Positions 2,100 through 45,492 are shown, counted from the first letter of the stretch. The stretch is DNA of 64,000 nucleotides from Candidatus Poribacteria bacterium (GCA_965208425.1 OZ242335.1:2119181-2183180); one strand, 5' to 3'. Program-made: numbers and translations. The notes: a model not told the origin generated them from the letters alone.

Positions 2100-2972
2100 T
2101 CACGCCCAGACAAAGATTTCGTCATCGTCTTCCGAATAGCCGATAAAAGTCGCCAAAACCGTTCGAGGAGTATTGCCCTCTACAGGAGCCACTAGGTGGA
2201 TGCAACCGCTGTTGAACAGGTAGAAATCGCCCGGTTGAACCTCGATTTGCTGCTGTTCAATCTTGTTGTGTGCAGCGTATTCGTAATAGGTGCCAGCCGA
2301 GAGGTGGGAATGCACCTCCGGACTCCAAACGCACCGATGTATAATAGCTTGGGGACTCTTTCCATCGTGGGCGGAATTCTGTATACAGATGAGTCCCGCA
2401 AATTGGTGGGTGAAACGAGAGACCTCATAGTTAAAGAGCTTGTCATCTAGGCCGACATGGTTGACGTGGGGAACATATTCGTGACCCTCATAGTGAATCC
2501 GAAAGATAGCAGGTCCGTAGAGACGGCCATCGGGTTCGCGGGCGACCTTGACCTCCTTGTTCACCGCCAGTGCCGAGAGGCAATCGTAGAGGGTATCTAC
2601 CGGATTGTCAAATCCGTCGAAAAGATGGCTGAAAAGTTCGTGTGTGCTCGCCGAGTGTTCAAGGAAAGCGTCCTTATTTTCGATTTCATCATCTGATACC
2701 CTCAGACCGCCGCGGGCGCGGTTAACCAGACTCGAACCGACATCGATTCGGCTTGGCAAGTTCCCCTCCGGGTTAGGCTCCTCTGGATCACGTGTCATAC
2801 CCCGATCAATGAATCGCTGCATGAGTCCACTACAGTGGTCTGGATTGTACGCACCGCGTAGGGCAATACCCGGTATGCGAGCGTCCGCAAGGGCTTGGAG
2901 CGGGTCTGCCTCATGATCAAACACGGTCTCTAGGTCGGGTTCTAACACCGACCAACTTTCACTAAATGCCAT
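2100..2972 (-). CDS. hypothetical protein, possibly a cupin-fold Fe(II)/2-oxoglutarate-type oxygenase
   Basis: The ORF track runs to 3002, but an AGGAGGAGGG RBS precedes the ATG at 2972 (MAFSESWSVLEPDLE...). His-rich segments (HYEGHEYVPHVNHVGLDD; GCIHLVAP near the C-terminus) resemble the 2-His-1-carboxylate arrangement. No strong family match could be made by eye. Confidence 0.4.
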   Translation of the reverse strand: MAFSESWSVLEPDLETVFDHEADPLQALADARIPGIALRGAYNPDHCSGLMQRFIDRGMTRDPEEPNPEGNLPSRIDVGSSLVNRARGGLRVSDDEIENKDAFLEHSASTHELFSHLFDGFDNPVDTLYDCLSALAVNKEVKVAREPDGRLYGPAIFRIHYEGHEYVPHVNHVGLDDKLFNYEVSRFTHQFAGLICIQNSAHDGKSPQAIIHRCVWSPEVHSHLSAGTYYEYAAHNKIEQQQIEVQPGDFYLFNSGCIHLVAPVEGNTPRTVLATFIGYSEDDDEIFVWA

Positions 2973-3198
2973 TTTATCCCTCCTCCTAATTTCTGTTAAC
3001 ATTTGACAAATGAGATGACTTTGGGCTTCTGTAGGGGTAACCCTTGTGGTTACCCTGTGGTCTGAAGACTGTTTGTGTGTTGCGCAGGCACAAGTTTCTT
3101 AATCCCGATTTATCGAGGTCGCTTTGGATCCCGATCTCATTGGGGACTGCTATATTGAACGGATTCCTGTAGGGGCAATCCTTGTGGTTTCCCTGCTT

Positions 3199-5091: not shown

Positions 5092-6060
5092 CTACGGAAT
5101 CAACAAAACCTTACCCGTTGTCTGTCTACCTTCTAACGCACGGTGCGCATCCGCGGCATCTTGGAGTGGGAACGTCCGATCAATGCGCAGCTTCAATGTG
5201 CCAGAAGAAATCCATTCAAAGAGATCCCCCGCCCGTCCCATCAGCTCTTCCCGATCGGCAGCGTGATGCCCCAAACCCGGGCGCGTTACAAACAACGAGC
5301 CGCTCGACAGACGGCTTAGATCGAACGGCGGTACAGGCCCACTCGACTGCCCGAACAGAGCCAGATAACCGCGGGGCCGAAGGCAGTTGAGGCTCTTATC
5401 AAAGGTGGTCTTAGCAACGGAATCGTAGACCACATCAACCCCTCGACCATCGGTTAGACGTTTAACTTCGGCTTCAAAGTCGGTCTGTGTATAGAGGATG
5501 ACCTCATCGGCACCAGCCTCCGTGGCAAGCTGCGCTTTCTCCGGTGTGGAGACTGTACCAAATACACGTGCCCCCAACGTCTTAGCCATCTGAATGAGCA
5601 ACAAGCCGACTCCACCGGCGGCTGCATGAACCAATGCCGTGTCGCCGGTACTGAGTGGGTAGGTGCTGCGGGTCAGATAGTGTGCGGTCATACCTTGCAG
5701 CATCGCCGCCGCTGCCGACTGTGTATCAATTGAATTGGGCAGAGGGACAAGCACCGCAGACGGCACGATCGCTGCCTCAGTGTAGGATCCTTGGTGCATC
5801 GCATAGCCCACACGATCCCCTACATTGACCTCGGTAACACCCGGTCCAATTGCTTCGACCACACCTGCACCTTCCATCCCCGGCGTAAAGGGCATGTTGG
5901 TACTCGGATAGAGTCCCGTGCGGTGGTAAATGTCGATATAGTTTAGTCCCGCTGCTTCGATGCGCACCCGCGCTTCACCCGCACCGGGTTCACTCGTCGA
6001 AACTTCTTCATAGCGGAGTGCCTCTGGTCCGCCATGTTCATGAATACAAATAGCGTTCAT
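5092..6060 (-). CDS. qor: NADPH:quinone oxidoreductase (zeta-crystallin-like MDR family)
   Basis: A 322-aa ORF. It begins [20 protein letters not shown] and carries the [15 protein letters not shown] cofactor motif. It ends KVLLIP, as Qor proteins typically do. Confidence 0.85.
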
Positions 6061-6381
6061 CTGTCTATCTCCTGTTTTTTATGGGCTGATACCACGGTTA
6101 TAAAAAATATCAAATTCAACACCATGCCTGTCTTAAATCCACTTATTCTTCGGGAGAACGGTTGGTAGGGAACGCAGATCTGCGTTCCCTACAGAAATCA
6201 CTTCTCCACTCATTCGCTCCAGTTACTTTGAATCCCGGTGTTATCAAAAACAATCTCTATAATCCGGAAATATTGCAAGTTTTCTTAGCCCCAGCGGGGC
6301 GACAGGTGTGGCGTGAAGTTGGTGCTGCCCACCTAGGTTCTCATACATATCTTAGATTCGCCCAACCTATCGAACATAGGA

Positions 6382-7128
6382 TCAGAGCGCGTCAGGTGCC
6401 AACTCTCGCATTCGCTCTATCCACCGTTCGCGCTTCGGATGTCCTTCGGCATTGTCAACCCACGGACCGTAGTCAACCCTGTTGCCGATAATCTGTTTTT
6501 TGGTCACTTCTGCCTCCTCTGGCGTTTTCGGATTGTTGTAGTAAACCAAGACACACATCCGGCGATCAACCGCACCGCCCCAACTTGCATGCCAGCATCT
6601 TACATCGAAGGCAACCACGTCCCCCGGCTCCGATTCAAAAATGTAGGCGGGAACATCAGGGATTTCGAGTTCCAATTCATCCATCTTCTGCCGTAGTTCG
6701 CCGTGAAAGGATGACTCGTGCGATCCCGGTATCAACCGCAGCGCGCCGGTTTCCGCAGTCACCGGTTGCAGATAGTAGGCAAACTTGACGCCATACTGAT
6801 GGAGACTTCCTGTATCGGGATGCCAGCGCGTATCCCCGACGTAACGGTTAATGTCGGAAGCAATACCGAAGACATCTTCGCCGTAAAGTTGTTCCGCTAC
6901 ATCGCAGAATCGCGGGTCTTCCAGTAGTGAGGCGAGGAAAGGTGTATCGGGTCCCATCGTTATCAGCCAATGTCGGCGTGTGCCATCGAATGGGTCATCT
7001 CTAAACGCCTCCGTCATTGCCGCTTCAAACTCCGTGTTGATGGTCTTCAATTCGTCCTGACTGAACAACTGCCGAAAAGTCAGAAATCCGAAGGTCTGAA
7101 AGTGATTGATCTGTTCTTGCGTGAGCAT
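6382..7128 (-). CDS. phytanoyl-CoA dioxygenase (PhyH) family Fe(II)/2OG oxygenase
   Basis: The ORF track begins at 7152. An AGGAAGGA RBS favours the ATG at 7128 (MLTQEQINHFQTFGFLTF...). The PhyH-like N-terminus and a C-terminal His-containing segment (WHASWGG) are present. Confidence 0.75.
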   Translation of the reverse strand: MLTQEQINHFQTFGFLTFRQLFSQDELKTINTEFEAAMTEAFRDDPFDGTRRHWLITMGPDTPFLASLLEDPRFCDVAEQLYGEDVFGIASDINRYVGDTRWHPDTGSLHQYGVKFAYYLQPVTAETGALRLIPGSHESSFHGELRQKMDELELEIPDVPAYIFESEPGDVVAFDVRCWHASWGGAVDRRMCVLVYYNNPKTPEEAEVTKKQIIGNRVDYGPWVDNAEGHPKRERWIERMRELAPDAL

Positions 7129-7172
7129 TATGTTATTCCTTCCTCTCCACATCGCCTAAGCGCACCTCAAAA

Positions 7173-8423: not shown

Positions 8424-9455
8424 TTCGTAAAACGTGAAAACAATGAGTTCATGGGTTCATTTAGCCCCAGAGGGGCGACATGTCTATAGTACACAGGTAA
8501 ACAAATACCCTAAAGCCCCAGAGGGACGACATGTATATCCCAAGGGTGGAACATAAGAAGACTGAATTAACCAACCGACTAATGAACCGATGAACTCCCC
8601 GATAAATCGGGATCCGAAGTGGCTTGACCGATCCATACCCAGCAGGATGATATATATAAAAAAATACAATGGTTGGTAGGGAACAACGATCGTTGTTCCC
8701 TACGAGTTGGAACGTAGAAGTGCGTATATTTCGTAGGGAACGGTGATCTCCGTTCCATTTGTTAAATGTCAACAGAACCTAGTACTCTGTCAGGCAAATT
8801 ATGCTTGTGTATATGGATTGGAAGCAAACAATAACATATTAGGACTTACGCACTTCAGTAGTGAACAACGATCGTTGTTCACTATGGGCTTTTCTATGGA
8901 GTCTCTGTTGTAGTTGCCCGATTTATCGGGCGTTGTTGGGCGTTGGTGCGGCGATAAATCGCCGAACTACAGGATTTTGAGCGTTCAACTGCGTAAGTCC
9001 TGATATATAATAGCTGCAAAACTTATATGACTGAGTACTAGTGCTCAGTCAGATAAGTTTTACAATTATAGGACTTACGCATTCCAGATTGTAGTTGCCC
9101 GATTCATCGGGCGTATCGGGGCAGGTCCCGATTTATCGGGATCCTCGCTTCGCGGGAGATGCCCCTCCCACACACCGCTCAGTGCCCGCTAAAGGGGGCG
9201 AAAGGGCTTTGACCGTTCGGCTGGGCAAGTCCTGATATGTTATTGTTTGCTTTCAATCAATATACACAAGCATAATTTGCCTGACAGGGTACTAGTTGAT
9301 AAACCAAACGCTAGAAAGCAATCTATTAGGCGGGAATTAGAATTCCCTCTTACACTACGCAAAGTATACGGGGTGAGGCGTACCCTTCCGAATCATGACT
9401 TGCTTCGCTCCAATTGTACAAACTTTAGTAAAAAACTCAAAGGAGATTTTCTTTA
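8424..9455. repeat. 1-kb non-coding repeat nest (MITE/REP graveyard)
   Basis: It contains CCCCAGAGGGGCGACATGTCTATAG x2 with a conserved 23-bp spacer. It also holds GTAGGGAACAACGATCGTTGTTCCCTAC palindromes, a partial direct copy (8738-8850) and a full inverted copy (9020-9300) of the 1575-1925 element, and an 80-bp perfect-ish palindrome at 8990-9075. No ORF has protein-like composition. Confidence 0.85.
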
Positions 9456-12128
9456 ATGCAAATTCAGATTAAACCCAGTTTTCTGTTTTTCGTGTTTACG
9501 TTGTTCGTGTGCCTCAATTCCTTTTTCCTAGGGAATAGTGCTGCCCAAGTTCAAGATGAACCCATTGGTATATCTGCCAACTATACTTTTGAAACGATTG
9601 ATGTTCCCGGCGTCGAGTTTTTGGCGATAACAGCCAGTAGCGACTTTGAGGATTACGCCGGCTACACACTGAGCCCTGATGGTGAAAAGGAAGTCGGCTT
9701 TACACTCATTGATGGCGTTTTTGAGACCTATGATTTCCCCGGCTCGCAGAAAACCCATTTCTACGCGCTTGGTAATAATGGGCTAGCTGCGGGTCACTAC
9801 CAGGATAGCGACGGTCTGTATCATGGCGTTATTGTGGAAGATGGCGAAATGCGGCAATACCATTTTCCGGGTGCGGTCCAAACGGAGATATACGGGTATA
9901 GCGATTCGACGGGGGCAATGACGGGTAATTTTATTGATACTTCTGGCATTCGTCGTGGATTCTCAGGAGATGAAATAATTGAGTATCCCGGGGCAACGGC
10001 AACTTATGCCACTTTTGTGAACGACGTAGGCAATGTCGTGGGTAGCTACATAGATGCTGAAGGTACATATCATGTATACGTGCGTGGTCCCGGGGGTAGT
10101 TTTGCAACTCTGGATATTCCAGCAGGATCGGATCCCGAATACTTTTTTCTGCAAGGTATTAATAACGCCCTGATTGCTGTCGGTCGAGCCAAAGCGGTGG
10201 GTGATGTCCCGCGCACCTATGCCGGCAATGCCATCGGTCTACAAGAATTGCAGTTTCCGGGCAGCGTCAGCACGGAAGGCTGGAATGTTAATCAGGATGG
10301 CTCTATCGTGGGACACTATGACTCTGCGGATGGACGTAGACACGGGTTTATCGCTAGACCGAAAGCGGGTACTCCACAAGCACGACCCGGTGTTGTGCAG
10401 CCTGCCCTCAACTATACCTTTGAGAGTATTGATGTTCCCGGTGTAGATTTTCTGGCGGTAACTGCGAGTAGCGACTTTGAGGATTACGCCGGCAACATGC
10501 GGAGTGCTGATAGTGAAAAAGATATCGGCTTTACACTCATTGACGGCGTTTTTGAGACGTATGATTTCCCTGACTCGCAGGGCACCTATTTCTATGCACT
10601 CGGCAATGATGGGACAGCTGCGGGTCACTACCAAGATAGCGATGGTCTTTACCACGGTGTTATCTTAGAAAATGGCGAACTGCGTCAATATGATTTTCTA
10701 GGTGCTGTCGAAACGTTCATATACGGGTATAGTGATGCGACGGGACGACTAACGGGTAGTTTTATAGATGCTGATGGTGTTCGCCGTGGTTTCTCAGGAG
10801 ATCTAATAATTGAATACCCTGGGGCATCGGCAACCTACGCCGATTTTGTGAACTGGTCAGGCAATATCGTGGGCAGCTACGTGGATGCTGAAGGTATGTA
10901 TCATGCATACACGCGTAGTCCGGTGGGCAGATTTCTATCTATGGACCTTCCAAACGCAACAAATCTGGAATACTTTTTTCTGCACGGTCTCAACAATGCA
11001 AGGGCTGTCGTTGGTCGCGCCAAAGCGGTGGGTGATGTCCCGCGCACCTATGTCGGCAACCCCCTCAATCTACAAGAATTGCGGGTACCGGGCAGCGTCA
11101 GCACGGAAGGGTGGAATATCAATCAGGACGGCTCCGTCGTCGGACACTATGACTCAGCAGGTGGGCGCAGACATGGCTTTATTGCCAGACTCACTTCCGA
11201 GGCGGTGAGCGATTATTTTGGCAACGTCTTCAACGTCACACTGGCTAAAGGTCTGAACATGATCTCTGTGCCGTTGTCACCACCAGCGCCGATGACTGCA
11301 AAATCGCTTGCGGGGCTGACAGGGGCAACCACCGTCATCACACTCGATACGGCAAACCAGCAGTTCGTCGGGTGGACACCAACCGCACCGGACGACGGTT
11401 TTCCAATTGAGGGTGGGAAAGGTTATATCGTCAATGTTCCGGAAACTCGCCAATTTGCCTTCGTCGGGTCAGAATGGACAAATCAGACGGAAACTGCAGC
11501 AGCACCTGCTATCTCCGTGGAGCCGGTCCAAGAAGCGTGGGCGTTCGTTGTAAGTGGTCACTTGGACGGCAAAGCAGCGTTTGATGGTTATCAAGTTATC
11601 GTCCGTAATCTGAGGACAAATCACACAATAACCACCTCGGTACGTGGTGATTACTTCGCCGCTGCGACCGCTGACTTGGCACGGCGGAGTGTTGTCGAAG
11701 TTGGAGATGTGCTTGAAGTCCGTGTTATCGGGCCGGGTGGAAATGTTGAATCACACACCCTCAATTACGAAGTAACCCCTGAAGACCTAGCGAACGCGGT
11801 TATGTCTATCAGGCTTGATAGTATCGGTCAACCGAAGCTGACGCAGTTGTTGCAGAACTTCCCCAATCCGTTTAACCCTGAAACTTGGATTCCATACCAG
11901 CTTGAAACAGCCGCAGATGTCACCCTCCACATTTACCACACAGCAGGTGATATCGTGCGGACGCTGGATCTCGGTTTCAAGGGACAAGGGTTCTATATGA
12001 CGCGCTCTAGGGCAGCGTACTGGGATGGGCGCAATAACTTGGGCGAGCAGGTTGCTTCTGGGGTTTACTTCTACAGCTTACATACCCCTGACTTTTCAGC
12101 GACTCGGAAGATGTTAATTTTGAAGTAG
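9456..12128 (+). CDS. secreted HAF-like-repeat protein with C-terminal NPFNPET (FlgD-Ig / T9SS-type) sorting-like domain, paralog 1 of 3
   Basis: An 890-aa ORF with an AAAGGAG RBS. The signal peptide is MQIQIKPSFLFFVFTLFVCLNSFFLGNSAAQ. Two ~290-aa tandem super-repeats are each made of ~45-aa units of the pattern FPG..T..YGIN..G.VVG.Y.D..G..HGFIA, which is HAF/DUF3466-like. A conserved ~300-aa C-terminal module ends ...LLQNFPNPFNPETWIPYQLETAADVTLHIY...VASGVYFYSL...RKMLILK. Confidence 0.85.
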   Translation: MQIQIKPSFLFFVFTLFVCLNSFFLGNSAAQVQDEPIGISANYTFETIDVPGVEFLAITASSDFEDYAGYTLSPDGEKEVGFTLIDGVFETYDFPGSQKTHFYALGNNGLAAGHYQDSDGLYHGVIVEDGEMRQYHFPGAVQTEIYGYSDSTGAMTGNFIDTSGIRRGFSGDEIIEYPGATATYATFVNDVGNVVGSYIDAEGTYHVYVRGPGGSFATLDIPAGSDPEYFFLQGINNALIAVGRAKAVGDVPRTYAGNAIGLQELQFPGSVSTEGWNVNQDGSIVGHYDSADGRRHGFIARPKAGTPQARPGVVQPALNYTFESIDVPGVDFLAVTASSDFEDYAGNMRSADSEKDIGFTLIDGVFETYDFPDSQGTYFYALGNDGTAAGHYQDSDGLYHGVILENGELRQYDFLGAVETFIYGYSDATGRLTGSFIDADGVRRGFSGDLIIEYPGASATYADFVNWSGNIVGSYVDAEGMYHAYTRSPVGRFLSMDLPNATNLEYFFLHGLNNARAVVGRAKAVGDVPRTYVGNPLNLQELRVPGSVSTEGWNINQDGSVVGHYDSAGGRRHGFIARLTSEAVSDYFGNVFNVTLAKGLNMISVPLSPPAPMTAKSLAGLTGATTVITLDTANQQFVGWTPTAPDDGFPIEGGKGYIVNVPETRQFAFVGSEWTNQTETAAAPAISVEPVQEAWAFVVSGHLDGKAAFDGYQVIVRNLRTNHTITTSVRGDYFAAATADLARRSVVEVGDVLEVRVIGPGGNVESHTLNYEVTPEDLANAVMSIRLDSIGQPKLTQLLQNFPNPFNPETWIPYQLETAADVTLHIYHTAGDIVRTLDLGFKGQGFYMTRSRAAYWDGRNNLGEQVASGVYFYSLHTPDFSATRKMLILK

Positions 12129-12706
12129 CCCCGTAGGTTGGGTAGAGCGTTAGCGAAACCCAACATAATCAACTTTCGCTCTCTGGTAGGTGCGGTTTCC
12201 AACCGCACCGCATTCAATCCAATCCGGTAGGTGCGGTTTCCAACCGCACTGCATCAGCACAGAAAGTTCATGTAGGTCGAGATTCACATCTCGACAAAAT
12301 CTCTTGGAAAATTGACCTATAGGAGGGCTAAATGTAGGGGCAGGTTTCTTAATCCCGCCTGTCCCGATTTATCGGGGATCTATCGGGGTCTTGTGCCTGC
12401 CCAAAAAGATGAGCGCGGAGTAGCCCCGTAGGTTGGGCAGAGCGTTAGCGAAACCCAACATAATCAACTTTTGCCCTCTGGTAGGTGCGGTTTCATGAAG
12501 TTTAATTTATTAATTCGGTAATCCCGATTTTCCTCGAAACATAGGGTAGGCGCGGTTTTCAACCGCGCTGGCGTCGATAGCAAATTACCGAAGTATTTTT
12601 TTATCTTCATCCAACCGCACCGGTTTCAAATGTCTCATTAATTCTAAAATCTACCGTAAATTATAGAAATGGGCAACATCAGTCCACCGAAAAGGAGCTT
12701 TTCTTT
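12129..12706. repeat. BIME-like cluster of GTAGG-prefixed REP hairpins between paralogs 1 and 2
   Basis: It contains CCCCGTAGGTTGGGTAGAGCGTTAGCGAAACCCAAC x2 (12127, 12418), GTAGGTGCGGTTTCCAACCGCACC x3, GTAGGTCGAGATTCACATCTCGAC, GTAGGGGCAGGTTTCTTAATCCCGCCTGTCCCGATTTATCGGGG, and then the R-box at 12634. Confidence 0.85.
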
Positions 12707-15411
12707 ATGCACAGTCAGGCCAAACCCAATTTTCTGTTTTACATCTTTACGTTGTTCGTATGCCTCAATTCCTTTTTCTTAAGTAACACCGATGCACAAA
12801 CCGATAATGACTCAACTCCCCCACCGCCTGAATTCAGCTACACTTATGAGAGTATTGATGTCCCCGGCGTAAATTTTTTAGCGTTGACAGCGAGTTCTGA
12901 CTTTGAGGATTACGCGGGTTACACGCGTAGTGCTGATGGTGAAAAGGAAGTCGCCTTTACACTCATTGATGGGGTTTTTACGACCTATGATTTCCCCGGC
13001 TCGCAGAAAACTCGTTTCTATGCGCTTGGTAATGATGGGACAGCTGCGGGCCACTACCAAGATAGCGATGGTCTTTACCATGGTGTCGTCTTGAAAAATG
13101 GCGAATTGCGCCAGTACGATTTTGAGGGTGCAGTCCAAACGGAGATATATGGTTTCAGTGATGCAACGGGCGTTCTGACGGGTAATTTTATAGATGCTTC
13201 TGGCGTTCGCCGTGGATTCTCAGGGGACACAATCGTTGAAGCGCCTGATGCAACAGCAACATACGCCGATTTTGTGAACGCGAGTGGCGCTATCACAGGA
13301 AGTTACGTAGGTGCTGACGGTCTATATTATCCATACGTGCGCACCCTGAATGGCACATTTGTAATTCACGACTATCTGGATTCATCAACTCTGGAATACT
13401 TTTTTGTGCACGGTCTCACTGATACAAGGATTATCGTTGCACGAGCTAAAGCGATAGGTGATATTCCACGTTCCTATGTCGGCACATCCCAGCAAGGATT
13501 ATCTGAATTACAGTTTCCGGGCAGTGTTAGCACAGAGGGTTGGAATATTAATCAAGATGGGTCTGCCGTCGGGTATTACGACTCTGCGGATGGACGTAGA
13601 CACGGATTTATCGCCAGACCCACTGCGGAAACTGCTGAAAAATTCAGAGATATAGCTTATCCCCCCCCACCTGAATTCAATTATACTTATCAGAGCATTG
13701 ATGTTCCGGGAATAGATTTTCTGGCGTTGACGGCGAGCAGCGACTTTGGGGGGTATGCAGGCTACGCGCGAAGTCCTGATGGTGAAAAGGAAGTTGCGTT
13801 TACACTCATTGACGGTGTGTTTACAACGTATGATTTTCCCGGCTCACAGGGTACCTATTTCTATGCACTCGGCAATAATGGGTTAGCTGCAGGGCACTAC
13901 CAAGATAGCGATGGCCTTTACCATGGTGTCGTCTTGGAAAATGGTGAACTGCGCCAATACGATTTTGAGGGTGCGGTCCAAACGGAGATATATGGTTTCA
14001 GCGATGCAACGGGTGTTCTGACGGGTAATTTTATAGATGCTTCTGGTGTTCGTCGTGGATTTTCAGGGGACACAATCGTTGAAGCGCCTGATGCAACAGC
14101 AACATACGCCGATTTTGTGAACTCACAAGGTCTTGTCGTAGGCAGCTACATGGATGCTGATGGTTTATTTCATGCCTACGCGCGCACCTTGAGTGGTCGG
14201 TTTATACTTCTTGACTATCTTGACCCGCTAACTCTGGAATACTTTTTTTTACACGGTATTAACGACGGGGGGGAAGGGGTGTATTTGTGATTGCCCGATC
14301 CAAATTTGTGGATGATATTCCACGCTCCTATGTCGGCTCATATCTGTACGGGCTACACGAATTGTGGTTTCCGGGTAGCGTGAGCACAGAGGGTTGGAAT
14401 ATCAATCAGGACGGCTCCGTCGTCGGACACTATGACTCAGCAGATGGGCGCAGACACGGGTTTATTGCCAGACTCGGCACTAAATCAGAGAGCGATTATT
14501 TTAGTAACGCCTTCAATATCACGCTCGATAAAGGTTTGAACATGATTTCTGTGCCGTTGTCACCACCAACACCGATGACTGCGAAGTCACTTGCCGCGCT
14601 GACAGGGGCGACCACCGTCATCACACTCGATACGGCAAACCAGCAGTTCGTCGGGTGGACGCCAAGTGCACCGGACGACGGGTTTCCTATTGAAGGTGGG
14701 AAAGGTTATATCGTCAATGTTCCGGAAACTCGCGAATTTGCCTTCGTCGGGTCAGAATGGACAAATCAGACGGAAACTGCAGCAGCACCTGCTATCTCCG
14801 TGGAGCCGGTCCAAGAAGCGTGGGCGTTCGTTGTAAGTGGTCACTTGGACGGCAAAGCAGCGTTTGACGATTACCAAGTAATCGTCCGTAACCTCAGAAC
14901 AGACAGGGTGATAACTGCTTCGGTGCAAGGTGATTACTTCGCCGCGGCAACCGCCGACTTGGCGCGCCGGAGCGTTGTCGAAGTTGGAGATGTCATTGAA
15001 GTCCGTGTTATTGGGCCGGGTGGAAATGTTGAATCACACACGCTCAACTTTGAAGTAACCCCTGAGGACCTAGCGAACGCGGTTATGTCTATCAGGCTTG
15101 ACAGTATCGGTCAACCGAAACTGACGCAGCTGTTGCAGAACTTCCCCAATCCGTTCAACCCGGAGACATGGATTCCATACCAGCTTGAAACAGCCGCAGA
15201 TGTCACCCTCCAGATTTATGATACGTCTGGCGATCTGGTGCGGACATTAGATCTCGGTTTCAAGGGACAAGGGTTCTATATGACACGCTCTAGGGCAGCG
15301 TACTGGGATGGGCGTAACAATTTGGGCGAGCAGGTTGCCTCTGGGATTTACTTCTACAGTTTGCATACCCCTGACTTTTCAGCGACTCGGAAGATGTTAA
15401 TTTTGAAGTAG
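12707..15411 (+). pseudogene. secreted HAF-like-repeat protein paralog 2, reading frame broken at a G7 homopolymer (about 14265-14290). The ORF track splits it into 12707-14290 and 14287-15411.
   Basis: The N-terminal part (527 aa, MHSQAKPNFLFYIFTLFVCLNSFFL...) stops at HGINDGGEGVYL*. The downstream frame continues IARSKFVDDIPRSYVGS..., homologous to the IVARAKAIGDIPRSY segment of the intact repeats. The C-terminal module is more than 90% identical to those of paralogs 1 and 3. Confidence 0.75.
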
Positions 15412-15709
15412 CCCCGTAGGTTGGGTAGAGCGTTAGCGAAACCCAACATAATCAACTATGGTGGATTCTAAAAACAGATAGACACTTTCGTCCTTTGGTA
15501 GGTGCGGTTTCCAACCGCACCGCATCGGCACAGTTAGAAACAGTGCCTACCAAACCGGAGAACGGTAGGTGCGGTTTCCTAACCGCACCCGTGCCGACTC
15601 GTCGAGCATCCTTGATAAATCGGGATTTGAAGTGTCTCATTAATTCTAAGATTCACTATAAATTATAGGAATGGACAACATTAGTCCACCGAAAGGGAGT
15701 TTTTTCTTT

Positions 15710-18382
15710 ATGCACAATCAGACCAAACCCAATTTTCTGTTTTTCGTGTTTATGTTGTTCGTATGCCTCAATTCCTTTTTCCTAGGGAATAGTGCTGCCC
15801 AAGTTCAAGATGAACCCGTTGGTATATCTGCCAACTATACTTTTGAAACGATCGACGTTCCGGGCGTAGATTTTTTAGCGTTGACGGCAAGTTCCGATTT
15901 TGAGGATTATGCCGGTTACACGAAAAGTGCTGATGGTGAAAAAAATGTCGGTTTTACACTGATTGATGGCATTTTTATAACCTACGATTTCCCTGGTGCC
16001 CAAAACACGTATTTCTACGCGCTTGGTAATGATGGGCGCGCTGCGGGCTACTACGAAGATAGCGAGGGTTTGCACCACGGTGTTATCTTGGAAGATGGTG
16101 AGATACGGCAATACGATTTCCCCGATGCTGTGCAAACAGAGATATACGGTATTAGTGACGCGACGGGAGTATTGACGGGTAATTGGATAGATGCTGCTGG
16201 TGTTCAGCGTGGATTTACAGGAGACACAATCCTTGAGTTCCCCGGGGCAACAGCAACATTCTCCGATTTCGTCAACTCCGCAGGCAATATGTTCGGCAGC
16301 TACATAGATGCTGACGGGCTATTTCAAGAATATGCATATTCCTCGGATGGCAGGTATATAGCTTTCGATCTCGCAAATGCAGAAAATCTCGAATTCTTTT
16401 ATGTGCATGGTTATAACGATACAAAGACAAGGGTTGCCCGAGGTAAAGTGTTCGGTGATGTCACACGCACTTATCTAGGTACATTTGTTGACGGTCTGCG
16501 GGAATTGAAGGTTCCGGGCAGCGTCAGCACAGAAGGTTATAATATCAATCAGGACGGTTCTGTTGTCGGGTTCTATGAGACACCCGATGGACGTAGACAC
16601 GGGTTTATTGCCAAACCCATTGAAGTCGTTGATAAACCCGTTTTCCAAATCAGTGGCTTCAACTATACTTATGAGAATATTGATGTACCGGGCGTAGATT
16701 TTCTGTCGTTGACAGCAAGTTCTGACTATGAAGATTACGCGGGCTACACGAAAAGTGCCGATGGCGAAAAAATGGTCGCCTTTACCCTTATTGATGGTGT
16801 TTTTAAGACCTACGATTTTCCCGGTTCACAGAATACCTATTTCTTTGCACTCGGTAATAATGGCGATGCTGCCGGCTACTACGAGGATAGCGAGGGGCAC
16901 CACCGCGGTATCGTCCTACAAAATGGCGAGTTACGCCAATACGATTTTCCGGGCTCCGTTGAAACAGAAATATACGGCATTTCTGATGCAACGGGGAACC
17001 TGACGGGTAATTGGACAGATGCTTCCGGCGTGCGTCGCGGATTCACAGCGGACATAATCGTTGAGTATCCGGGGGCATCGGAAACATTCGCCGATTTTAT
17101 CAATGCGTCAGGGGGTATGGTCGGCAGCTACGTAGATGCCGAGGGTACATATACACCATACCTACGCGCTGGAGATGGCAGGTTTGTATCTTTCGACCTT
17201 CCGACCGAAGAAACTTATGAATTCTTTTATGTGCACGGTCAAACCGATACGAAGATTTCCGTTGCTCGAGGCAAAGTCGTAGGTGATGTTCCCCGCACTT
17301 ATGTCGGTTCATTCCTTGGGGGGCTCCATGAATTGAAAGTTCCAGGCAGCGTTTCAACGGAAGGGTACAATATCAATCAGGACGTTTCTGTCGTTGGACA
17401 CTATGACTCCCCGGATGGACGCAGACACGGCTTTATCGCAAGACTCGTTGATAAAGCAGAGAGCGAGCATTTCGGCAATACTTATACCGTCACGCTGGAT
17501 AAAGGTCTGAACATGATCTCTGTGCCGTTGTCACCACCAGCGCCGATGACTGCAAAATCGCTTGCGGGGCTGACAGGAGCGACAACCGTCATCACACTCG
17601 ATACGGCAAACCAGCAATTTGTCGGGTGGACACCAACCTCACCGGACGACGGTTTTCCAATTGAAGGTGGAAAAGGCTATATCGTCAATGTTCCGGAAAC
17701 TCGCGAATTTGCCTTTGTCGGGTCAGAATGGACAAATCAGACGGAAACTGCAGCAGCACCCGGTATATCCGCGGATCCAGTCCAAGAAGCGTGGGCGTTC
17801 GTTGTGAGTGGTCACTTGGAGGGTAAACAAGCGTTTGACGGTTATCAAGTAATCGTCCGTAATCTGAGAACAAACGAGGTGATAACCACCGCAGTACGAG
17901 GCGATTACTTCGCCGCTGCAACCGCCGACTTGGCGCGGCGGAGCGTCGTCGAAGTTGGAGATGTCATTGAGGTCGATGTCATCGGTCCCGACAGAAATGT
18001 TGAATCACACACCCTCAATTATGAAGTGACCCCTGAAGACCTAGCGAATGCGGTTATGTCTATCAGGCTTGACAGTATCGGTCAACCGAAGCTGACTCAG
18101 TTGTTGCAGAACTTCCCCAATCCGTTCAACCCGGAGACATGGATTCCATATCAGCTTGAAACAGCCGCAGATGTCACCCTCCAGATTTATGATACGTCTG
18201 GCGATCTTGTGCGGACGTTGGATCTCGGTTTCAAGGGACAAGGGTTCTATATGACGCGCTCTCGGGCCGCGTACTGGGACGGACGCAACAACTTGGGTGA
18301 GCAGGTTGCCTCTGGAATTTACTTCTACAGTTTGCATACCCCCGACTTTTCGGCGACACGCAAGATGCTGATTTTGAAGTAG
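15710..18382 (+). CDS. secreted HAF-like-repeat protein with C-terminal NPFNPET sorting-like domain, paralog 3 of 3
   Basis: The ORF track starts at 15671. Homology to the paralog N-termini and the GAAAGGGAG RBS favour the ATG at 15710 (MHNQTKPNFLFFVFMLFVCLNSFFLGNSAAQ). The architecture matches paralog 1. The C-terminal 300 aa are almost identical to those of paralogs 1 and 2. Confidence 0.85.
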   Translation: MHNQTKPNFLFFVFMLFVCLNSFFLGNSAAQVQDEPVGISANYTFETIDVPGVDFLALTASSDFEDYAGYTKSADGEKNVGFTLIDGIFITYDFPGAQNTYFYALGNDGRAAGYYEDSEGLHHGVILEDGEIRQYDFPDAVQTEIYGISDATGVLTGNWIDAAGVQRGFTGDTILEFPGATATFSDFVNSAGNMFGSYIDADGLFQEYAYSSDGRYIAFDLANAENLEFFYVHGYNDTKTRVARGKVFGDVTRTYLGTFVDGLRELKVPGSVSTEGYNINQDGSVVGFYETPDGRRHGFIAKPIEVVDKPVFQISGFNYTYENIDVPGVDFLSLTASSDYEDYAGYTKSADGEKMVAFTLIDGVFKTYDFPGSQNTYFFALGNNGDAAGYYEDSEGHHRGIVLQNGELRQYDFPGSVETEIYGISDATGNLTGNWTDASGVRRGFTADIIVEYPGASETFADFINASGGMVGSYVDAEGTYTPYLRAGDGRFVSFDLPTEETYEFFYVHGQTDTKISVARGKVVGDVPRTYVGSFLGGLHELKVPGSVSTEGYNINQDVSVVGHYDSPDGRRHGFIARLVDKAESEHFGNTYTVTLDKGLNMISVPLSPPAPMTAKSLAGLTGATTVITLDTANQQFVGWTPTSPDDGFPIEGGKGYIVNVPETREFAFVGSEWTNQTETAAAPGISADPVQEAWAFVVSGHLEGKQAFDGYQVIVRNLRTNEVITTAVRGDYFAAATADLARRSVVEVGDVIEVDVIGPDRNVESHTLNYEVTPEDLANAVMSIRLDSIGQPKLTQLLQNFPNPFNPETWIPYQLETAADVTLQIYDTSGDLVRTLDLGFKGQGFYMTRSRAAYWDGRNNLGEQVASGIYFYSLHTPDFSATRKMLILK

Positions 18383-18456
18383 CTCCGTAGGTTGGGTAGA
18401 GCGTTAGCGAAACCCAACATGATGAGTTTAATGCGGAGTCAGGAAGGACTAAAAAA

Positions 18457-19293
18457 ATGCCTGTCTTAACGGCAGAAGATCGAAAGTTCTGGGAAGAAAA
18501 CGGCTATGTGGTCGTTCACAACGCCGTTCCAACCGAAAATCTCAAAGCTGCCGAGCGGGCGGTATGGGATTTTTTGGAGATGCAGCCCGACGAGCCTGCG
18601 AGCTGGTATCCCGACCCGCCTCGCTCCACCATCATGACGGAGATGTATCAGCATCAGGCACTATGGGACAACCGTCAGTATCCTCGTATTCATCAAGCGT
18701 TTGCGGAGATTTGGGATACTGAACAGTTGTGGGTGAGCATTGACCGCGCCAGCATGAACCCGCCAGAGCTACCGGATTGGAAATACCCCGGCAAACTTCA
18801 CTGGGATACTCAATTGGAACCGCCGATTGAGTTCTGGGTTCAGGGGGTGCTATACCTGACAGACACCGCAGCCGACCAAGGCGCGTTCACCTGTGTACCG
18901 GGCTTCCATCACCAACTGGAGGGTTGGCTCAAAGACTTGCCCCCGGAGACGAATCCGCGTGAGCAAGATCTGAACAGCCTCGGTGCTAAATCGATTCCTG
19001 GGAAAGCAGGTGATCTCATCATCTGGCACAGTGCCTTGCCCCACGGCAGCAGTTCCAACACAGCCATGGTCCCACGCGTGGTCCAGTACATCACCATGTT
19101 CCCATCGCAAAGATACGGTGAGGATGCCCGAAACCATCGCATCAAAGCGTGGCAAGATCGCCTAGCGGGACTGGTCATTGAGGTCACCGGTATAACCACG
19201 TGGGAACTCCGAAACGAGAAAGAGCATCAAATAGGTCAGACAGCAGAACTGTCTCCACTGGGGCGAAAATTGTTAGGACTGGATCAATGGTAG
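18457..19293 (+). CDS. phytanoyl-CoA dioxygenase (PhyH) family protein
   Basis: A 278-aa ORF with an AGGAAGGA RBS. The N-terminus reads LTAEDRKFWEENGYVVVHNAV, and a C-terminal WHSALPHGSSSN His motif is present. Confidence 0.8.
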   Translation: MPVLTAEDRKFWEENGYVVVHNAVPTENLKAAERAVWDFLEMQPDEPASWYPDPPRSTIMTEMYQHQALWDNRQYPRIHQAFAEIWDTEQLWVSIDRASMNPPELPDWKYPGKLHWDTQLEPPIEFWVQGVLYLTDTAADQGAFTCVPGFHHQLEGWLKDLPPETNPREQDLNSLGAKSIPGKAGDLIIWHSALPHGSSSNTAMVPRVVQYITMFPSQRYGEDARNHRIKAWQDRLAGLVIEVTGITTWELRNEKEHQIGQTAELSPLGRKLLGLDQW

Positions 19294-27979: not shown

Positions 27980-30148
27980 ATGAATCACAGAGTACATAAT
28001 CAGATCGTCAACTTTATTTGGGGGATTGCGGACGATGTGTTGAGAGACATCTACACACGTGGGAAATACCGAGACATTATTCTCCCGTTCACCGTTCTAA
28101 GAAGATTGGATGCCCTCTTAGAGCCCACAAAAGAAAAAGTGCGCGAAGTCAACCAATTCCTGATTGAGAACCAGATTGATGATAAATCTGCTCTAAAGGG
28201 GCAATCTGGCTATAAGTTTTATAATACCTCGAGGTTCACTTTCAAAATCTTGTTGAACGATCCAAACCACATCGGTTCAAACTTGAAAAATTATCTGGAC
28301 GGTTTCAGTGAAGATGTGCAGCAAATTATCAGCAAATTCAAACTCAAGAACCAACTCGAAACATTGGAAGATGCTGGTATCACCTTTGCCTTGATTTCAA
28401 AATTCGTTTCCAGAGACATCAATCTGAGTCCCGAAGAAGCAGTAAATAGCAAAGGTGAAATACTGCCTCCGTTAACCAACTTGGGAATGGGTTATGTCTT
28501 TGAGGAATTGATCCGAAGGTTCAGTGAGGAGAACAACGAGGAAGCCGGTGAACACTTTACCCCAAGAGAAATCATCAAACTGATGACTCATCTGCTATTC
28601 CTACCGGTGAAGGATAAACTCACAGAGGGCACAACATATCTGATTTATGACCCCGCCTGTGGGTCGGGCGGAATGCTTACAGAAGCGGAACTGTTTGCCA
28701 AGGAATTGACGCAGGAGCGAAATGAATTTTTCCTTTATGGACAAGAGGTCACCCCGGAAACCTACGCGACTTGCACGGCAGACATGCTAATCAAGGACAA
28801 AGATCCTGAAAACATCGCCCACGGTTCTACTCTCTCAGAAGACAGTTTCCCGCACCTGCGATTTGACTTCATGCTCTCCAATCCGCCCTATGGCAAAAGT
28901 TGGAAACTTGACTATGATGCGATTGTTGGTGACAAAAAGCAAATCAAAGACGATCGATTTCGCGTCGGTGTCCCCAGAGTCAGCGACGGACAACTCCTTT
29001 TTCTCTCCAATATGATCTCTAAAATGAAGCACGACACGGCACTCGGAAGTAGGATCGCTATTGTTCATAACGGATCTGCTATCTTTACGGGGGAGGCTGG
29101 AAGTGGCGAGAGTGAAATCCGTAAACAGATGATTGAAAATGATTGGTTGGAGTGTATTATTGAACTTCCCCAGAACATCTTTTACAACACCGGGATTTCA
29201 ACCTACATCTGGATTCTTTCCAATCGGAAGCCGAACCGCCGCCAAGGGAAAATACAACTTATTGATGCCTCCCAACTTTACCAGAAGCTCAACAAGAATT
29301 TAGGGCAGAAGAATTGTGAGTTAACGGACGAGCACATCGACAAAATTACGCAGCTCTATCTTAACTTTGCAGAAAGCGAGATCTCAAAGATTTTTGGGAA
29401 CGCAGAATTTGGCTATCAAAAAATCACCGTTGATCGACCATTACGGCTGTCCGCTAGATTCACCCCTGAGGCAGTCGAAACGCTCCGTTTTGCGAATGTC
29501 CTCCGGGCTGAAATGGAATGGGTTTATAAACGATTTGGCGATGCAGTTTATGAGGATTTAACACCCCATAAGCAACAGATTGAGGCGTATATCGCTTACA
29601 ACGAAATCAAGATCAGCCCCGCAAATAATAAGAAAAAGCTACTTGACCCGAAGTTTTGGAACACACAAAGAAAAGTCATGGAAGCAGCCGAAAAGTTGAT
29701 GGTGGAGTTGGGCGACTACGAATCTAATGACTTTAATAAATTCCGACATGCGGTTGATGATACCCTCAAAATGTTTGGGATTTCACTCAGTGCAATCGAA
29801 AAGAAAACAATTTTCAATGCCGTTAGTTGGAAGGACGAAAGTGCACAACCTGTCATCAAAAAATGGGACCGGGATGGCACGTTCCATTATGAGCCTGATC
29901 CAGACCTAAGAGATACAGAAAATGTTCCGTTGGTGCAAGAGATTGACGACTACTTCCAAACGGAAGTTCTGCCCTATGTACCTGATGCGTGGATCGATGA
30001 AGATAAAACTGTTAAAGGCTATGAGATTCCCTTTACCAAATACTTCTACCGGTATCAACCGTTGCCAAGTCTTGAGGAGATTACTGCTGACGTTCTTGTT
30101 CTTACACAGGAAACCGAGGGCATTTTACAGGATATCATCGAATCGTAG
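27980..30148 (+). CDS. hsdM: Type I restriction-modification system, DNA methyltransferase subunit M (long form, 722 aa)
   Basis: The RBS is AAGGAGAA. Motif I is IYDPACGSGGML and motif IV is MLSNPPYGKSW (NPPY, N6-adenine). An HsdM_N-like N-terminus is present, plus a ~200-aa C-terminal extension. Confidence 0.9.
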   Translation: MNHRVHNQIVNFIWGIADDVLRDIYTRGKYRDIILPFTVLRRLDALLEPTKEKVREVNQFLIENQIDDKSALKGQSGYKFYNTSRFTFKILLNDPNHIGSNLKNYLDGFSEDVQQIISKFKLKNQLETLEDAGITFALISKFVSRDINLSPEEAVNSKGEILPPLTNLGMGYVFEELIRRFSEENNEEAGEHFTPREIIKLMTHLLFLPVKDKLTEGTTYLIYDPACGSGGMLTEAELFAKELTQERNEFFLYGQEVTPETYATCTADMLIKDKDPENIAHGSTLSEDSFPHLRFDFMLSNPPYGKSWKLDYDAIVGDKKQIKDDRFRVGVPRVSDGQLLFLSNMISKMKHDTALGSRIAIVHNGSAIFTGEAGSGESEIRKQMIENDWLECIIELPQNIFYNTGISTYIWILSNRKPNRRQGKIQLIDASQLYQKLNKNLGQKNCELTDEHIDKITQLYLNFAESEISKIFGNAEFGYQKITVDRPLRLSARFTPEAVETLRFANVLRAEMEWVYKRFGDAVYEDLTPHKQQIEAYIAYNEIKISPANNKKKLLDPKFWNTQRKVMEAAEKLMVELGDYESNDFNKFRHAVDDTLKMFGISLSAIEKKTIFNAVSWKDESAQPVIKKWDRDGTFHYEPDPDLRDTENVPLVQEIDDYFQTEVLPYVPDAWIDEDKTVKGYEIPFTKYFYRYQPLPSLEEITADVLVLTQETEGILQDIIES

Positions 30149-30277
30149 GTCGAATTTCAAAATTCGACGATAATATTCATCAATATGTAGTTCTCTACGA
30201 ATTGTGCGAAATCTTACTCCTTGACAACCTAGGGAGTTTCAAATCAAGACAACATCTGGTAAGTATTTGCGTCATTC

Positions 30278-31621
30278 GTGATGAAGTACAACTGTCAACG
30301 AACGAAAAGCGAACTAATAAAAATGTACAAACGGTATAACAGTTATAAGGAATCCGGATTCGCGTGGCTGGGGGAGATTCCGAGTCATTGGGAAGCGTCC
30401 ACGATCAATGCTCTAACAAAGGTTGTAAGTCGAAAAAATAAACCGAGCGAGCCATTGCTTTCTGTTTACAGGGATTATGGAGTTATTCTGAAAAGTTCAA
30501 GAGATGATAATTATAATAAGCCCGGACAAGATTTAAGTGCCTACAAGTTTGTTAAGCCTACGAATCTAGTCCTAAACAAGATGAAAACGTGGCAAGGGTC
30601 GCTTGGTGTCTCGGAGCTTCAGGGAATTGTGAGCCCTGCATATATCACGTGTGAGTTAGACATCTCAAATGTATTTCCAAAGTATTTGCATTATCTACTG
30701 CGATGCCACAATTACATTTATGAGTATAACAGATTATCGTATGGCGTAAGAACTAACCAGTGGGACATGAGGTACGATGATTTTAAGAAAATACCTGTGT
30801 TTTTGCCATCGAAGCAAGAACAACATGCCATTGCCGCCTTTCTTGACCGCAAGATTACCGAAATCGACCGCTTCATTGCTAGTGAAGAGAAGCTCATTGC
30901 CCAGTTAAATGGGCAGAGAGCTGTCATTATCAACCATGCTGTTACAAAGGGACTTGACTCGGACGTGCAAATGAAAACGTCGAAGGTTAAGTGGATTGTG
31001 GAGATGCCAAAACACTGGACAATTACAAAATTGAAATATACTTCCAACATTCCTGTGACTTATGGTCTTAATATTGAGGCAGATAGATATACTACAGAAG
31101 GAATCAGATTGATTAGAATTACTGATATTGATGAAAAAGGTGGTCTCCGAAAAAGAGGGGTTTATCTGCCTGAAAACTGTGTTCCTCGAGAGCAGATGCT
31201 TAATGGTTATGATTTGCTTTTGTCTCGTAGTGGCGCAACGGTGGGAAAATCCTATTTGCACCTTGAAGCAGGGCAATACACTAGTGCAGGCTATCTGGTT
31301 AGATTTAACTTCGGTGATTATTACACGTCTAAGTTTATTTATTACGTAACACAATCACACTTTTATCGGAATTGGCTTGAGCAACAGATAATTATAGCGA
31401 CAATTCAGAATGTTAATGGCGAAAAGTATTCAAATTTTCAACTCCCTATTCCTTCGCATCAAGAACGGAAACATATTGTCAACTTCCTCAACTACAAAAC
31501 TAAACAGATCGACGAGTTTGTATCCAAAGAACGCCAAAAAATCGAGCTTATCAAACAATACCGCCAAGTCCTCATCTCTCAAGCGGTCACCGGAAAAATT
31601 GATGTGAGAGGGACAGTATGA
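30278..31621 (+). CDS. hsdS: Type I restriction-modification system specificity subunit S (two target-recognition domains)
   Basis: A 447-aa, AT-rich ORF of about 38% GC. A duplicated TRD architecture is separated by conserved coiled regions (...EKLIAQLNGQRAVII... and ...ELIKQYRQVLISQAVTGKIDV). The start is uncertain: 30278 or 30323. Confidence 0.85.
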   Translation: MMKYNCQRTKSELIKMYKRYNSYKESGFAWLGEIPSHWEASTINALTKVVSRKNKPSEPLLSVYRDYGVILKSSRDDNYNKPGQDLSAYKFVKPTNLVLNKMKTWQGSLGVSELQGIVSPAYITCELDISNVFPKYLHYLLRCHNYIYEYNRLSYGVRTNQWDMRYDDFKKIPVFLPSKQEQHAIAAFLDRKITEIDRFIASEEKLIAQLNGQRAVIINHAVTKGLDSDVQMKTSKVKWIVEMPKHWTITKLKYTSNIPVTYGLNIEADRYTTEGIRLIRITDIDEKGGLRKRGVYLPENCVPREQMLNGYDLLLSRSGATVGKSYLHLEAGQYTSAGYLVRFNFGDYYTSKFIYYVTQSHFYRNWLEQQIIIATIQNVNGEKYSNFQLPIPSHQERKHIVNFLNYKTKQIDEFVSKERQKIELIKQYRQVLISQAVTGKIDVRGTV

Positions 31622-31676
31622 TTAACCCTCCCTAGGTTGATTTTGACAACTCGGCCTACAAGTGTAAGGACAAAAA

Positions 31677-44521: not shown

Positions 44522-44538
44522 CGTTACACCTCTGATTT

Positions 44539-45483: not shown

Positions 45484-45492
45484 AGAACACCT

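Follow-up and report, generated by a model that had tools for sequence, protein, structure and literature searches.

Poribacteria are dominant, uncultured sponge symbionts. A 64,000-nucleotide stretch (in its entirety, the window) of a Candidatus Poribacteria genome carries three neighbouring genes for repeat-containing secreted proteins with a common C-terminal region, raising the question of what these proteins are, how they leave the cell, and why their C-termini are so alike. The explanation we favour is that the locus comprises three old tandem paralogues, one now frameshifted, of a large family of modular, Sec-exported proteins specific to Poribacteria; we hold this to be probable, an assessment that applies jointly to the array, the family, binding by the N-terminal ‘passengers’, the role of the C-terminal cassette, and gene conversion.

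Organization of the array

Three co-oriented paralogous genes had been proposed by a first-pass annotation, and their coordinates stand. The reading of g2 as a single ORF does not: a frameshift (a 1-nt deficit in a run of seven Gs) splits it into ORFs 12707-14290 and 14287-15411, and one extra G in this run restores a 901-aa ORF.

9456..12128, + strand: g1, intact 890-aa member (signal peptide, two propellers, M1, M2, CTD), based on the ORF, family matches and an AF2 model
12707..15411, + strand: g2, frameshift-interrupted member, 901 aa once a G is inserted
14267..14273, + strand: G7 run with the 1-nt deficit, in variable blade 5 of g2 propeller B, based on comparison with an orthologue
15710..18382, + strand: g3, intact 890-aa member, based on the ORF and family matches

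The longest g3 ORF begins at 15671, but an RBS (GGGAG, 15696-15700) and the homologues favour a start at 15710. Metabolic genes (for PhyH, ADH and aldo-keto reductase) neighbour the array, and no Rfam family reached its gathering score across the 64-kb window.

Signal peptides and double propellers

9456..9545, + strand: g1 signal peptide, aa 1-30, with K6, hydrophobic core F9-L25 and cleavage motif SAA↓Q, read from the sequence
9576..10358, + strand: g1 propeller A, aa 41-301, six blades of ∼43 aa, based on DSSP of the model (∼24 beta-strands) and repeat anchors
10407..11189, + strand: g1 propeller B, aa 318-578, six blades, with a HAF_rpt match at aa 555-575

All three proteins begin with a Sec (SPase I) signal peptide, as read from the sequence, consisting of K6, a 17-aa hydrophobic core and a predicted cleavage motif (SAA↓Q in g1 and g3, TDA↓Q in g2); the lipobox is non-canonical (LFVC). 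These signal peptides had been described as near-identical, which is true of g1 and g3 (85% aa, 93% nt) and untrue of g2 (57-60% aa versus both). In the AF2 model of g1, confidence is low over residues 1-40, where a helix spans 11-21.

As first annotated, each protein then contains two super-repeats, which span 261-266 aa each and are separated by a linker of 16-22 aa (period ∼276-281 aa). Each super-repeat is built from six units of ∼43 aa bearing (F/Y)PG ... HGF-type motifs. The AF2 models have pLDDT values of 73.6 (g1) and 82; the domain-to-domain arrangement in the g1 model is unreliable (pTM 0.41). Affinity to HAF repeats is confirmed by TIGR02913, which scores above its cutoff (22.65 bits) in g1 (26.0) and below it in g2 (17.1 and 16.6) and g3 (21.2), with 35 family members matching at E<=1e-3; the match is best in blade 6, the blade with ...GRRHGFIA. 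A resemblance to DUF3466 was not borne out, PF11949 giving no Pfam match at E<=1 in any of the four ORFs, and a PDB phmmer search with full-length g1 likewise returned nothing at E<=1. The reported divergence of the repeat regions holds: propellers are 64-73% identical (aa) between paralogues, and each propeller varies mainly in its blades 4-5.

A large family in Poribacteria

The array proteins have >1,790 database homologues, and in GTDB species genomes 255 stretches were confirmed to encode relatives. The kept loci are titled Poribacteria in 77 of 78 cases, the exception (L047) being titled ‘uncultured bacterium’. Tandem arrays are the rule in this family, with at least two co-oriented copies in 59 of 79 loci. 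The number of propellers is itself variable: 50 versions have one, 124 have two, 3 have three, 10 have four and a single version has five. The family is thus large and uncharacterised, although of a familiar kind.

Two apparent additional architectures were discounted. Short spacing before the last C-terminal module in other species, which had suggested a short gene at the array end, represents the single-propeller version (∼600-650 aa). Stand-alone C-terminal module proteins (200-370 aa) mostly start at an internal Met (MLSVPL...) and have no signal peptide; in the fetched loci these are split or truncated genes. A search for a conserved neighbour that might act as a partner, in which 1,228 ORFs from the 79 loci were clustered, gave syntenic metabolic genes, cytoplasmic WD40 proteins and nothing else; no outer-membrane or T9SS-like component was among them.

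The C-terminal cassette and the route of export

11223..11825, + strand: g1 M1 (aa 590-672) and M2 (aa 693-790), beta-sandwich ‘stalk’ domains
11853..12125, + strand: g1 CTD, aa 800-890, FlgD-Ig-like, T9SS type A-like

A common C-terminal module is indeed present in all three proteins, as a 312-aa region ending NPFNPET...ASG(V/I)YFY...RKMLILK. Its assignment to the FlgD-Ig / T9SS-type CTDs also holds: PF13860 exceeds its gathering score (27 bits) in all three genes, while TIGR04183 (Por_Secre_tail; cutoff 23) is exceeded in the C-terminal ORF of g2 (27.4 bits) and in g3 (25.2), with only 18.7 in g1. M1 and M2 have no Pfam or NCBIfam match.

The proposal that this region is a C-terminal export or anchor module is supported by its distribution, as M1-M2-CTD is found at the extreme C-terminus behind many unrelated N-terminal domains. 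M1-M2 occurs in 641 clusters (50% identity), always ends ∼96-107 aa from the C-terminus and always precedes a CTD; so far, it is named in poribacterial records only. Passengers include multicopper oxidase, SnoaL, PAP2/VCPO-like, choice-of-anchor I plus phytase-like, Kelch and esterase domains. Given this range of unrelated passengers, M1-M2-CTD would appear to act as a generic export/anchor cassette of 300 aa, which Poribacteria join to many unrelated proteins. Most likely, it guides the protein through the outer membrane or onto it, and keeps it at a distance from the surface; array proteins would be exported across the outer membrane and displayed on the cell.

No T9SS machinery is encoded nearby: none of SprA/Sov, PorV, PorU or PorK/L/M/N was detected among ORFs of the 64-kb window, nor was any T9SS component among seven large neighbouring ORFs of related loci. 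Searching the literature on Poribacteria together with T9SS, FlgD or HAF returned a single relevant study (Kamke et al. 2014, PMC3909097), according to which no structural genes for Por secretion were found in single-cell genomes of Poribacteria. These absences fit an alternative that we consider possible but unlikely, in which the proteins are exported by Sec and then retained in the periplasm or envelope, the FlgD-Ig-like CTD not being a T9SS signal in Poribacteria and having some other role, for instance attaching the protein to the envelope, forming oligomers or being recognised by another pathway. The CTD is nearest to the FlgD Ig domain in both sequence and fold, closer than to solved T9SS CTDs (PorU appears at Foldseek rank 46, and with E=0.22 in a sequence search), and PF18962 (Por_Secre_tail) remains below its gathering score of 27 in all three genes (12.3, 21.1 and 18.6 bits), a precomputed match to it being present in some homologues. 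Retention is harder to reconcile with TIGR04183 matches at E<=1e-3 in 77 of 79 family members (best 2.2e-11), and with a CTD that, as sorting tags do, always forms the very end of the protein, however diverse the passengers before it. PNPFNPET, GxYFY and the basic hydrophobic tail correspond to the motifs of T9SS type A CTDs. Moreover, the single-cell genomes of 2014 are incomplete.

Function of the passengers

The double propellers would be the functional passenger, and most likely bind ligands or glycans. As the family is among the most expanded predicted secreted proteins of Poribacteria, it is a reasonable candidate for recognition of host matrix or particles. The propellers could instead have a catalytic role, perhaps as six-bladed Vgb/SMP-30-type lyases or lactonases acting on host-derived or dissolved organic compounds, with the array supplying isozymes. 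Consistent with this, g3 matches the streptogramin B lyase Vgb(A) (33 bits, E=3e-8), true enzymes (esterase, multicopper oxidase) are also carried on M1-M2-CTD, and the neighbouring genes noted above are metabolic. However, the Vgb match (NF000022) lies far under the 600-bit cutoff and is confined to g3 among 79 members, no catalytic family model matches, and HAF repeats are not known to have a catalytic role. Tandem duplication of whole propellers (one to five per protein) is, in addition, more typical of binders that depend on avidity. We therefore think a catalytic function improbable, and retain binding as the preferred role.

Divergent passengers and probable exchange of cassettes

Between paralogues, propellers show dS of 0.73-1.17 and omega of 0.21-0.27, and gene-wide positive selection on them is rejected. 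Each paralogue has propeller orthologues that are 91-98% identical in other genomes (91-95% for g3, at loci L057, L055 and L012). These values run counter to the suggestion that the array encodes variable surface proteins; instead, the paralogues are probably distinct, old, conserved lineages under purifying selection.

The C-terminal modules follow a different pattern. Described earlier as almost identical in nucleotides, they are 88-90% identical (83-97% in 150-nt windows) and 91-92% identical in amino acids. M1-M2 dS is 0.32-0.44, and at 0.63 the g1 orthologue pair exceeds the paralogue pairs (0.32-0.34). Best matches of the C-terminal module cross orthology groups. Pairs from the same array are 84% identical in this module versus 70% in the propellers, whereas pairs from different loci whose propellers are at least 90% identical share only 78% in the module. 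Runs of concordant sites among copies are significant (p<=0.003), and in comparisons between species the propellers are conserved at least as well as the cassette. Together, these comparisons suggest that similarity of the C-terminal modules inside an array owes more to gene conversion than to tighter constraint: the C-termini would be so alike within the array because gene conversion exchanges them between copies. The cassette, the signal-peptide region or 5' end and the 3' flank all appear to have been exchanged repeatedly between copies in the same genome.

We consider it very improbable that these are surface proteins undergoing phase or antigenic variation, a reading in which strand slippage at the G-run would turn g2 on and off and propeller divergence would help to evade immunity or phage, for although the frameshift lies within a G7 homopolymer in the most variable blade, G runs of at least seven are rare (only two in 64 kb), recombination among array copies is evident and ∼12 family genes are split in other assemblies, the tract is not conserved, because the intact g2 orthologue of locus L001 reads GGAGGAGG at this site in place of a G-run, and the low omega, the highly identical orthologues of every paralogue in other species-level genomes and a possible homopolymer sequencing error all weigh against it.

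Flanking elements

12137..12164, + strand: stem-loop, 8 nt after the g1 stop (-13.8 kcal/mol, no T-run)
15420..15447, + strand: stem-loop after the g2 stop
18391..18418, + strand: stem-loop after the g3 stop (-18.3 kcal/mol, z = -4)
12419..12494, + strand: solo fourth copy of the 3' flank and hairpin, 96% identical to 12124-12199
12631..12702, + strand: 72-nt leader upstream of g2, 86% identical to 15633-15704
15633..15704, + strand: 72-nt leader upstream of g3, common with g2

The same hairpin does follow each gene, with GTTGGGTAGAGCGTTAGCGAAACCCAAC beginning 8 nt after every stop (12137, 15420 and 18391; none expected by chance), and a stem-loop occupies the matching position in related loci. 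The solo copy comprises the last 5 nt of a gene, the stop, the hairpin and 30 nt downstream. As it has no T-run, the post-stop hairpin is not a canonical intrinsic terminator. Neither promoter-like sites (12, versus 12.6 +/- 3.5 in shuffled sequence) nor terminator-like sites (16, versus 10.4 +/- 3.1) are clearly above expectation, and the hairpin is not among the latter. Upstream, a shared box and RBS had been noted for all three genes; this is accurate for ∼20 nt of RBS and spacer, while the 72-nt leader is restricted to g2 and g3, and a MITE-like element precedes g1 in its place.

Implications

Conserved passengers set against export cassettes homogenised within a genome provide a clear example of domain-specific concerted evolution. 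The 300-aa M1-M2-CTD also offers an easy way to list the whole poribacterial secretome from sequence, and sharpens a question that has stood since 2014, namely how TIGR04183-like cargo is exported in a phylum in which no T9SS genes have been found. A more speculative and rather doubtful extension is that Poribacteria may export and display a large cassette-bearing secretome (hundreds of clusters) by a non-canonical route, either a highly divergent T9SS or a new translocon or anchor, with homogenisation of the cassette within genomes perhaps reflecting co-evolution with a lineage-specific receptor. HAF double-propellers would then be the cargo that has expanded most, and might serve in recognising the sponge host.

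Comparison with known systems

The top Foldseek matches are double-propeller proteins, the first being PorZ (5m11), a surface component of the P. gingivalis T9SS that likewise has two propellers and a CTD-type beta-sandwich. The TM-score is only 0.15-0.17, however, with 11% identity, and PorZ propellers are seven-bladed, whereas those of the array have six blades. Orthology was rejected, the PorZ model NF052228 matching the CTD alone (profile positions 696-745 of 757; 12-16 bits, cutoff 260). BT4673 (3ott, 3va6), a periplasmic hybrid two-component sensor of Bacteroides and the second-best match, also places tandem propellers before an Ig-like domain, and its sensor domains are glycan sensors; the array proteins differ in having no Reg_prop or Y_Y_Y Pfam domains and no transmembrane or kinase part (TM-score 0.14).

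The Ig-like domain of the FlgD hook cap (PF13860; 3osv, 7eh9) resembles the CTD, but the array proteins have neither the FlgD N-terminal domain nor a flagellar context, and the domain serves here as a C-terminal tag on secreted proteins. With HAF repeat proteins (TIGR02913) the array shares ∼40-aa blades ending H-[AG]-F, and extracellular repeats followed by a C-terminal sorting signal. In other phyla such proteins often carry PEP-CTERM signals; the tag here is a FlgD-Ig/T9SS-like cassette, and only one or two blades per protein are significant.

T9SS type A cargo of the Bacteroidota (TIGR04183/PF18962), such as P. gingivalis RgpB with its Ig-like domain followed by a CTD, differs in that the array is hosted by a phylum with no reported T9SS structural genes, its CTD resembles the FlgD Ig domain (PF13860) more than it does PF18962, and a conserved two-domain M1-M2 stalk precedes that CTD. 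The overall plan is nonetheless the same, with an N-terminal Sec signal peptide, a variable passenger, one or more beta-sandwich spacers and a beta-sandwich of 80-90 aa at the extreme C-terminus, and close homologues of the array proteins are named by NCBI as ‘T9SS type A sorting domain-containing protein’.

A tandem array with a broken middle gene

The locus is a genuine tandem array, in which three paralogous genes share one orientation, as the first-pass annotation had claimed:

9456-12128, +: g1, intact, 890 aa
12707-15411, +: g2, 2,705 nt (2 mod 3), read as two ORFs (12707-14290 and 14287-15411)
15710-18382, +: g3, intact, 890 aa

The longest g3 ORF begins at 15671; the ribosome-binding site (RBS) and homologues favor 15710. 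The middle gene had also been taken as intact, which it is not: its frame breaks within a G7 run (14267-14273), and one extra G restores an ORF of 901 aa. The orthologue in L001, a syntenic metagenome contig, carries GGAGGAGG at this site and is intact (903 aa). G runs of at least seven occur only twice in the whole 64 kb, and the remaining window genes examined appear intact, so the break could be either a genuine mutation of recent date or an error in sequencing the homopolymer. Purifying selection on g2 relative to its orthologue is still strong (omega 0-0.18). In other assemblies, approximately 12 family genes are similarly divided between one ORF for the propellers and one for the C-terminal cassette (e.g. 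L026 9959-12676, L030, L046, L009, L012); either pseudogenes or homopolymer errors could have arisen repeatedly.

Domain architecture

At the N-terminus of each protein is a Sec signal peptide of typical make-up (K6, a hydrophobic core of 17 aa, an SAA|Q or TDA|Q site). After it come two super-repeats of 261-266 aa, each comprising six blades of ~43 aa. An AlphaFold2 model based on a 79-sequence alignment (mean pLDDT 73.6) depicts two six-bladed beta-propellers (A and B), then three beta-sandwich domains; the last 308 aa, modelled separately, reached pLDDT 82. We refer to domains M1, M2 and the C-terminal domain (CTD) as the cassette, and to the shared ~300-aa C-terminal region as the C-module.

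Earlier domain assignments proved largely correct. The proposed FlgD-Ig/T9SS-type CTD is borne out by FlgD_ig (PF13860), for which all three proteins exceed the gathering score, and by the T9SS type A sorting domain model TIGR04183, whose cutoff is passed by g2 and g3 and missed by g1; all three score below the gathering score of PF18962. The repeats had been described as HAF/DUF3466-like, of which the HAF part stands (g1 exceeds the cutoff of HAF_rpt, TIGR02913; g2 and g3 match below it), while the family-model search returned no DUF3466 match for the array proteins. Family-wide, at E<=1e-3, TIGR04183 is found in 77/79 members and HAF_rpt in 35/79.

A large poribacterial family

Databases hold >1,790 homologues, and those with a name are Candidatus Poribacteria proteins labelled ‘T9SS type A sorting domain-containing protein’. 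A scan in which each GTDB species was represented by a single genome confirmed 255 stretches that encode relatives; 77 of the 78 loci kept lie in metagenome-assembled genomes titled Poribacteria, and the other (L047) in an ‘uncultured bacterium’. This is a large, uncharacterised and apparently Poribacteria-restricted family of secreted double-propeller proteins with a shared sorting or stalk cassette. A single chromosome often holds several separate family loci, and 59/79 fetched loci contain at least two co-oriented copies within 10 kb (six in one locus). Across these loci, versions with one, two, three, four and five propellers number 50, 124, 3, 10 and 1, respectively.

L001 likewise has three genes, with PhyH and aldo-keto reductase genes downstream as in the window, yet its third gene is 89% identical in nucleotides to g1 versus 78% to g3. 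Orthologues of g3 (propellers 91-95% identical) reside in other loci of other genomes; array content has therefore been reshuffled between lineages.

Features elsewhere in the window include:

2100-3002, -: WelO5-like carrier-protein-independent halogenase homologue (78 bits)
6382-7152, -, and 18457-19293, +: PhyH-family dioxygenase paralogues on either side of the array
27980-34658: type I restriction-modification system (HsdM 27980-30148, HsdS 30278-31621, HsdR 31677-34658)
43583-46479, -: second tandem paralogue triple, PD40/TolB-like beta-propeller proteins of 312-328 aa

A PhyH expansion has been noted in Poribacteria (Kamke 2014). The restriction-modification genes occupy an island of low GC (0.41-0.44) and strong AT skew, possibly gained by horizontal transfer. 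Upstream of its array, L001 carries asparagine-synthase genes and an IS605 OrfB/Cas12f-like TnpB gene (5126-6262, -), both absent from the equivalent window position. Cytoplasmic WD40-repeat proteins (~690-1000 aa, without signal peptides) are often encoded upstream of, and co-oriented with, arrays (59 members in 35 loci; e.g. L020, L036, L039, L042, L062), and a 1,062-aa UPF0182-like membrane protein recurs in seven related loci.

Constrained propellers and concerted evolution

The suggestion of hypervariable surface proteins is not upheld. Between paralogues, propeller dS is 0.73-1.17 and omega 0.21-0.27, and the orthologues of each paralogue elsewhere are 91-98% identical: the paralogues are old and constrained. 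Most of the variation lies in the linkers and in blades 4-5 of either propeller.

Several results point to concerted evolution, through gene conversion, of the cassette, 5' end and 3' flank. Propellers A and B within one protein resemble each other more closely (72-81% identical) than equivalent propellers across paralogues do (64-73%). Within the array, C-modules share 91-92% amino acid and 88-90% nucleotide identity, the latter short of the ‘almost identical’ first reported, and across species they are conserved no better than propellers (mean entropy 0.73-0.87 vs 0.79-0.83). For M1-M2, dS is 0.63 between g1 and its orthologue h1 versus 0.32-0.44 between paralogues. Among 103 two-propeller members, same-array pairs have C-modules 84% and propellers 70% identical, while different-locus pairs with propellers at least 90% identical have C-modules only 78% identical. 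A Sawyer-type permutation test found significant concordant tracts in every pair (p<=0.003); one, in g1-g3, covers the signal-peptide region (dS 0.08, versus 0.89 in the neighbouring propeller).

The common downstream hairpin described at first was recovered: the stem-loop GTTGGGTAGAGCGTTAGCGAAACCCAAC, of moderate stability (-13.8 to -18.3 kcal/mol) and without a T-run, lies 8 nt past all three stop codons, a position kept in close relatives. The shared upstream element was confirmed in part, with the RBS and TTTTCTTTA spacer common to all three genes and a 72-nt leader to g2 and g3 only. Two further elements lie beside the genes:

8779-9295: MITE-like element directly upstream of g1, with ~69-nt terminal inverted repeats (8779-8847 and 9227-9295, 94% identical)
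12419-12494: solo 76-nt copy of a family gene 3' end in the g1-g2 spacer (last 5 nt, stop, hairpin, downstream sequence)

Unequal recombination may have left the solo copy behind, or it may be what remains of a deleted copy. Sequence related to the MITE-like element recurs at 1663-1900 (97% over 238 nt) and 1636-1731. Dispersed REP-like palindromes occupy the rest of the array spacers; the window has six copies of GGTGCGGTTTCCAACCGCACC and 16 of CCCGATTTATCGGG at intergenic sites (e.g. 7279, 12189, 12230, 15501, 57818, 58920; 3104, 8917, 9098, 9127, 12363, 39241), and both also occur in 23-26/79 related poribacterial loci.

The cassette and the route of export

Searched exhaustively with HMMER, M1-M2 on its own matched 641 clusters at 50% identity, 354 of them at E<=1e-10. 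M1-M2 always ends ~96-107 aa before the C-terminus, so the CTD always comes next. Ten diverse matches carry unrelated N-terminal passengers, including a multicopper oxidase, one to six SnoaL domains, a PAP2/VCPO-like domain, choice-of-anchor I plus phytase-like domains, twelve Kelch repeats, and esterases; the one match bearing an organism name is poribacterial. Such a fixed C-terminal place behind varied passengers is how a cassette for export or anchoring should behave, and it answers the alternative that the C-module is a common domain unrelated to sorting.

Neither the 64-kb window nor the large ORFs adjoining related arrays encode any T9SS component. TIGR04183-like domains have been described on many poribacterial repeat proteins, and structural genes for Por secretion were not found in poribacterial single-cell genomes and the pathway was left open (Kamke et al. 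2014, PMC3909097). The array proteins may cross the outer membrane via a T9SS. The chief points of interest are the export pathway in Poribacteria and the domain-specific concerted evolution; the array proteins themselves are best classed with a known group, secreted repeat proteins bearing a C-terminal sorting-domain tag.
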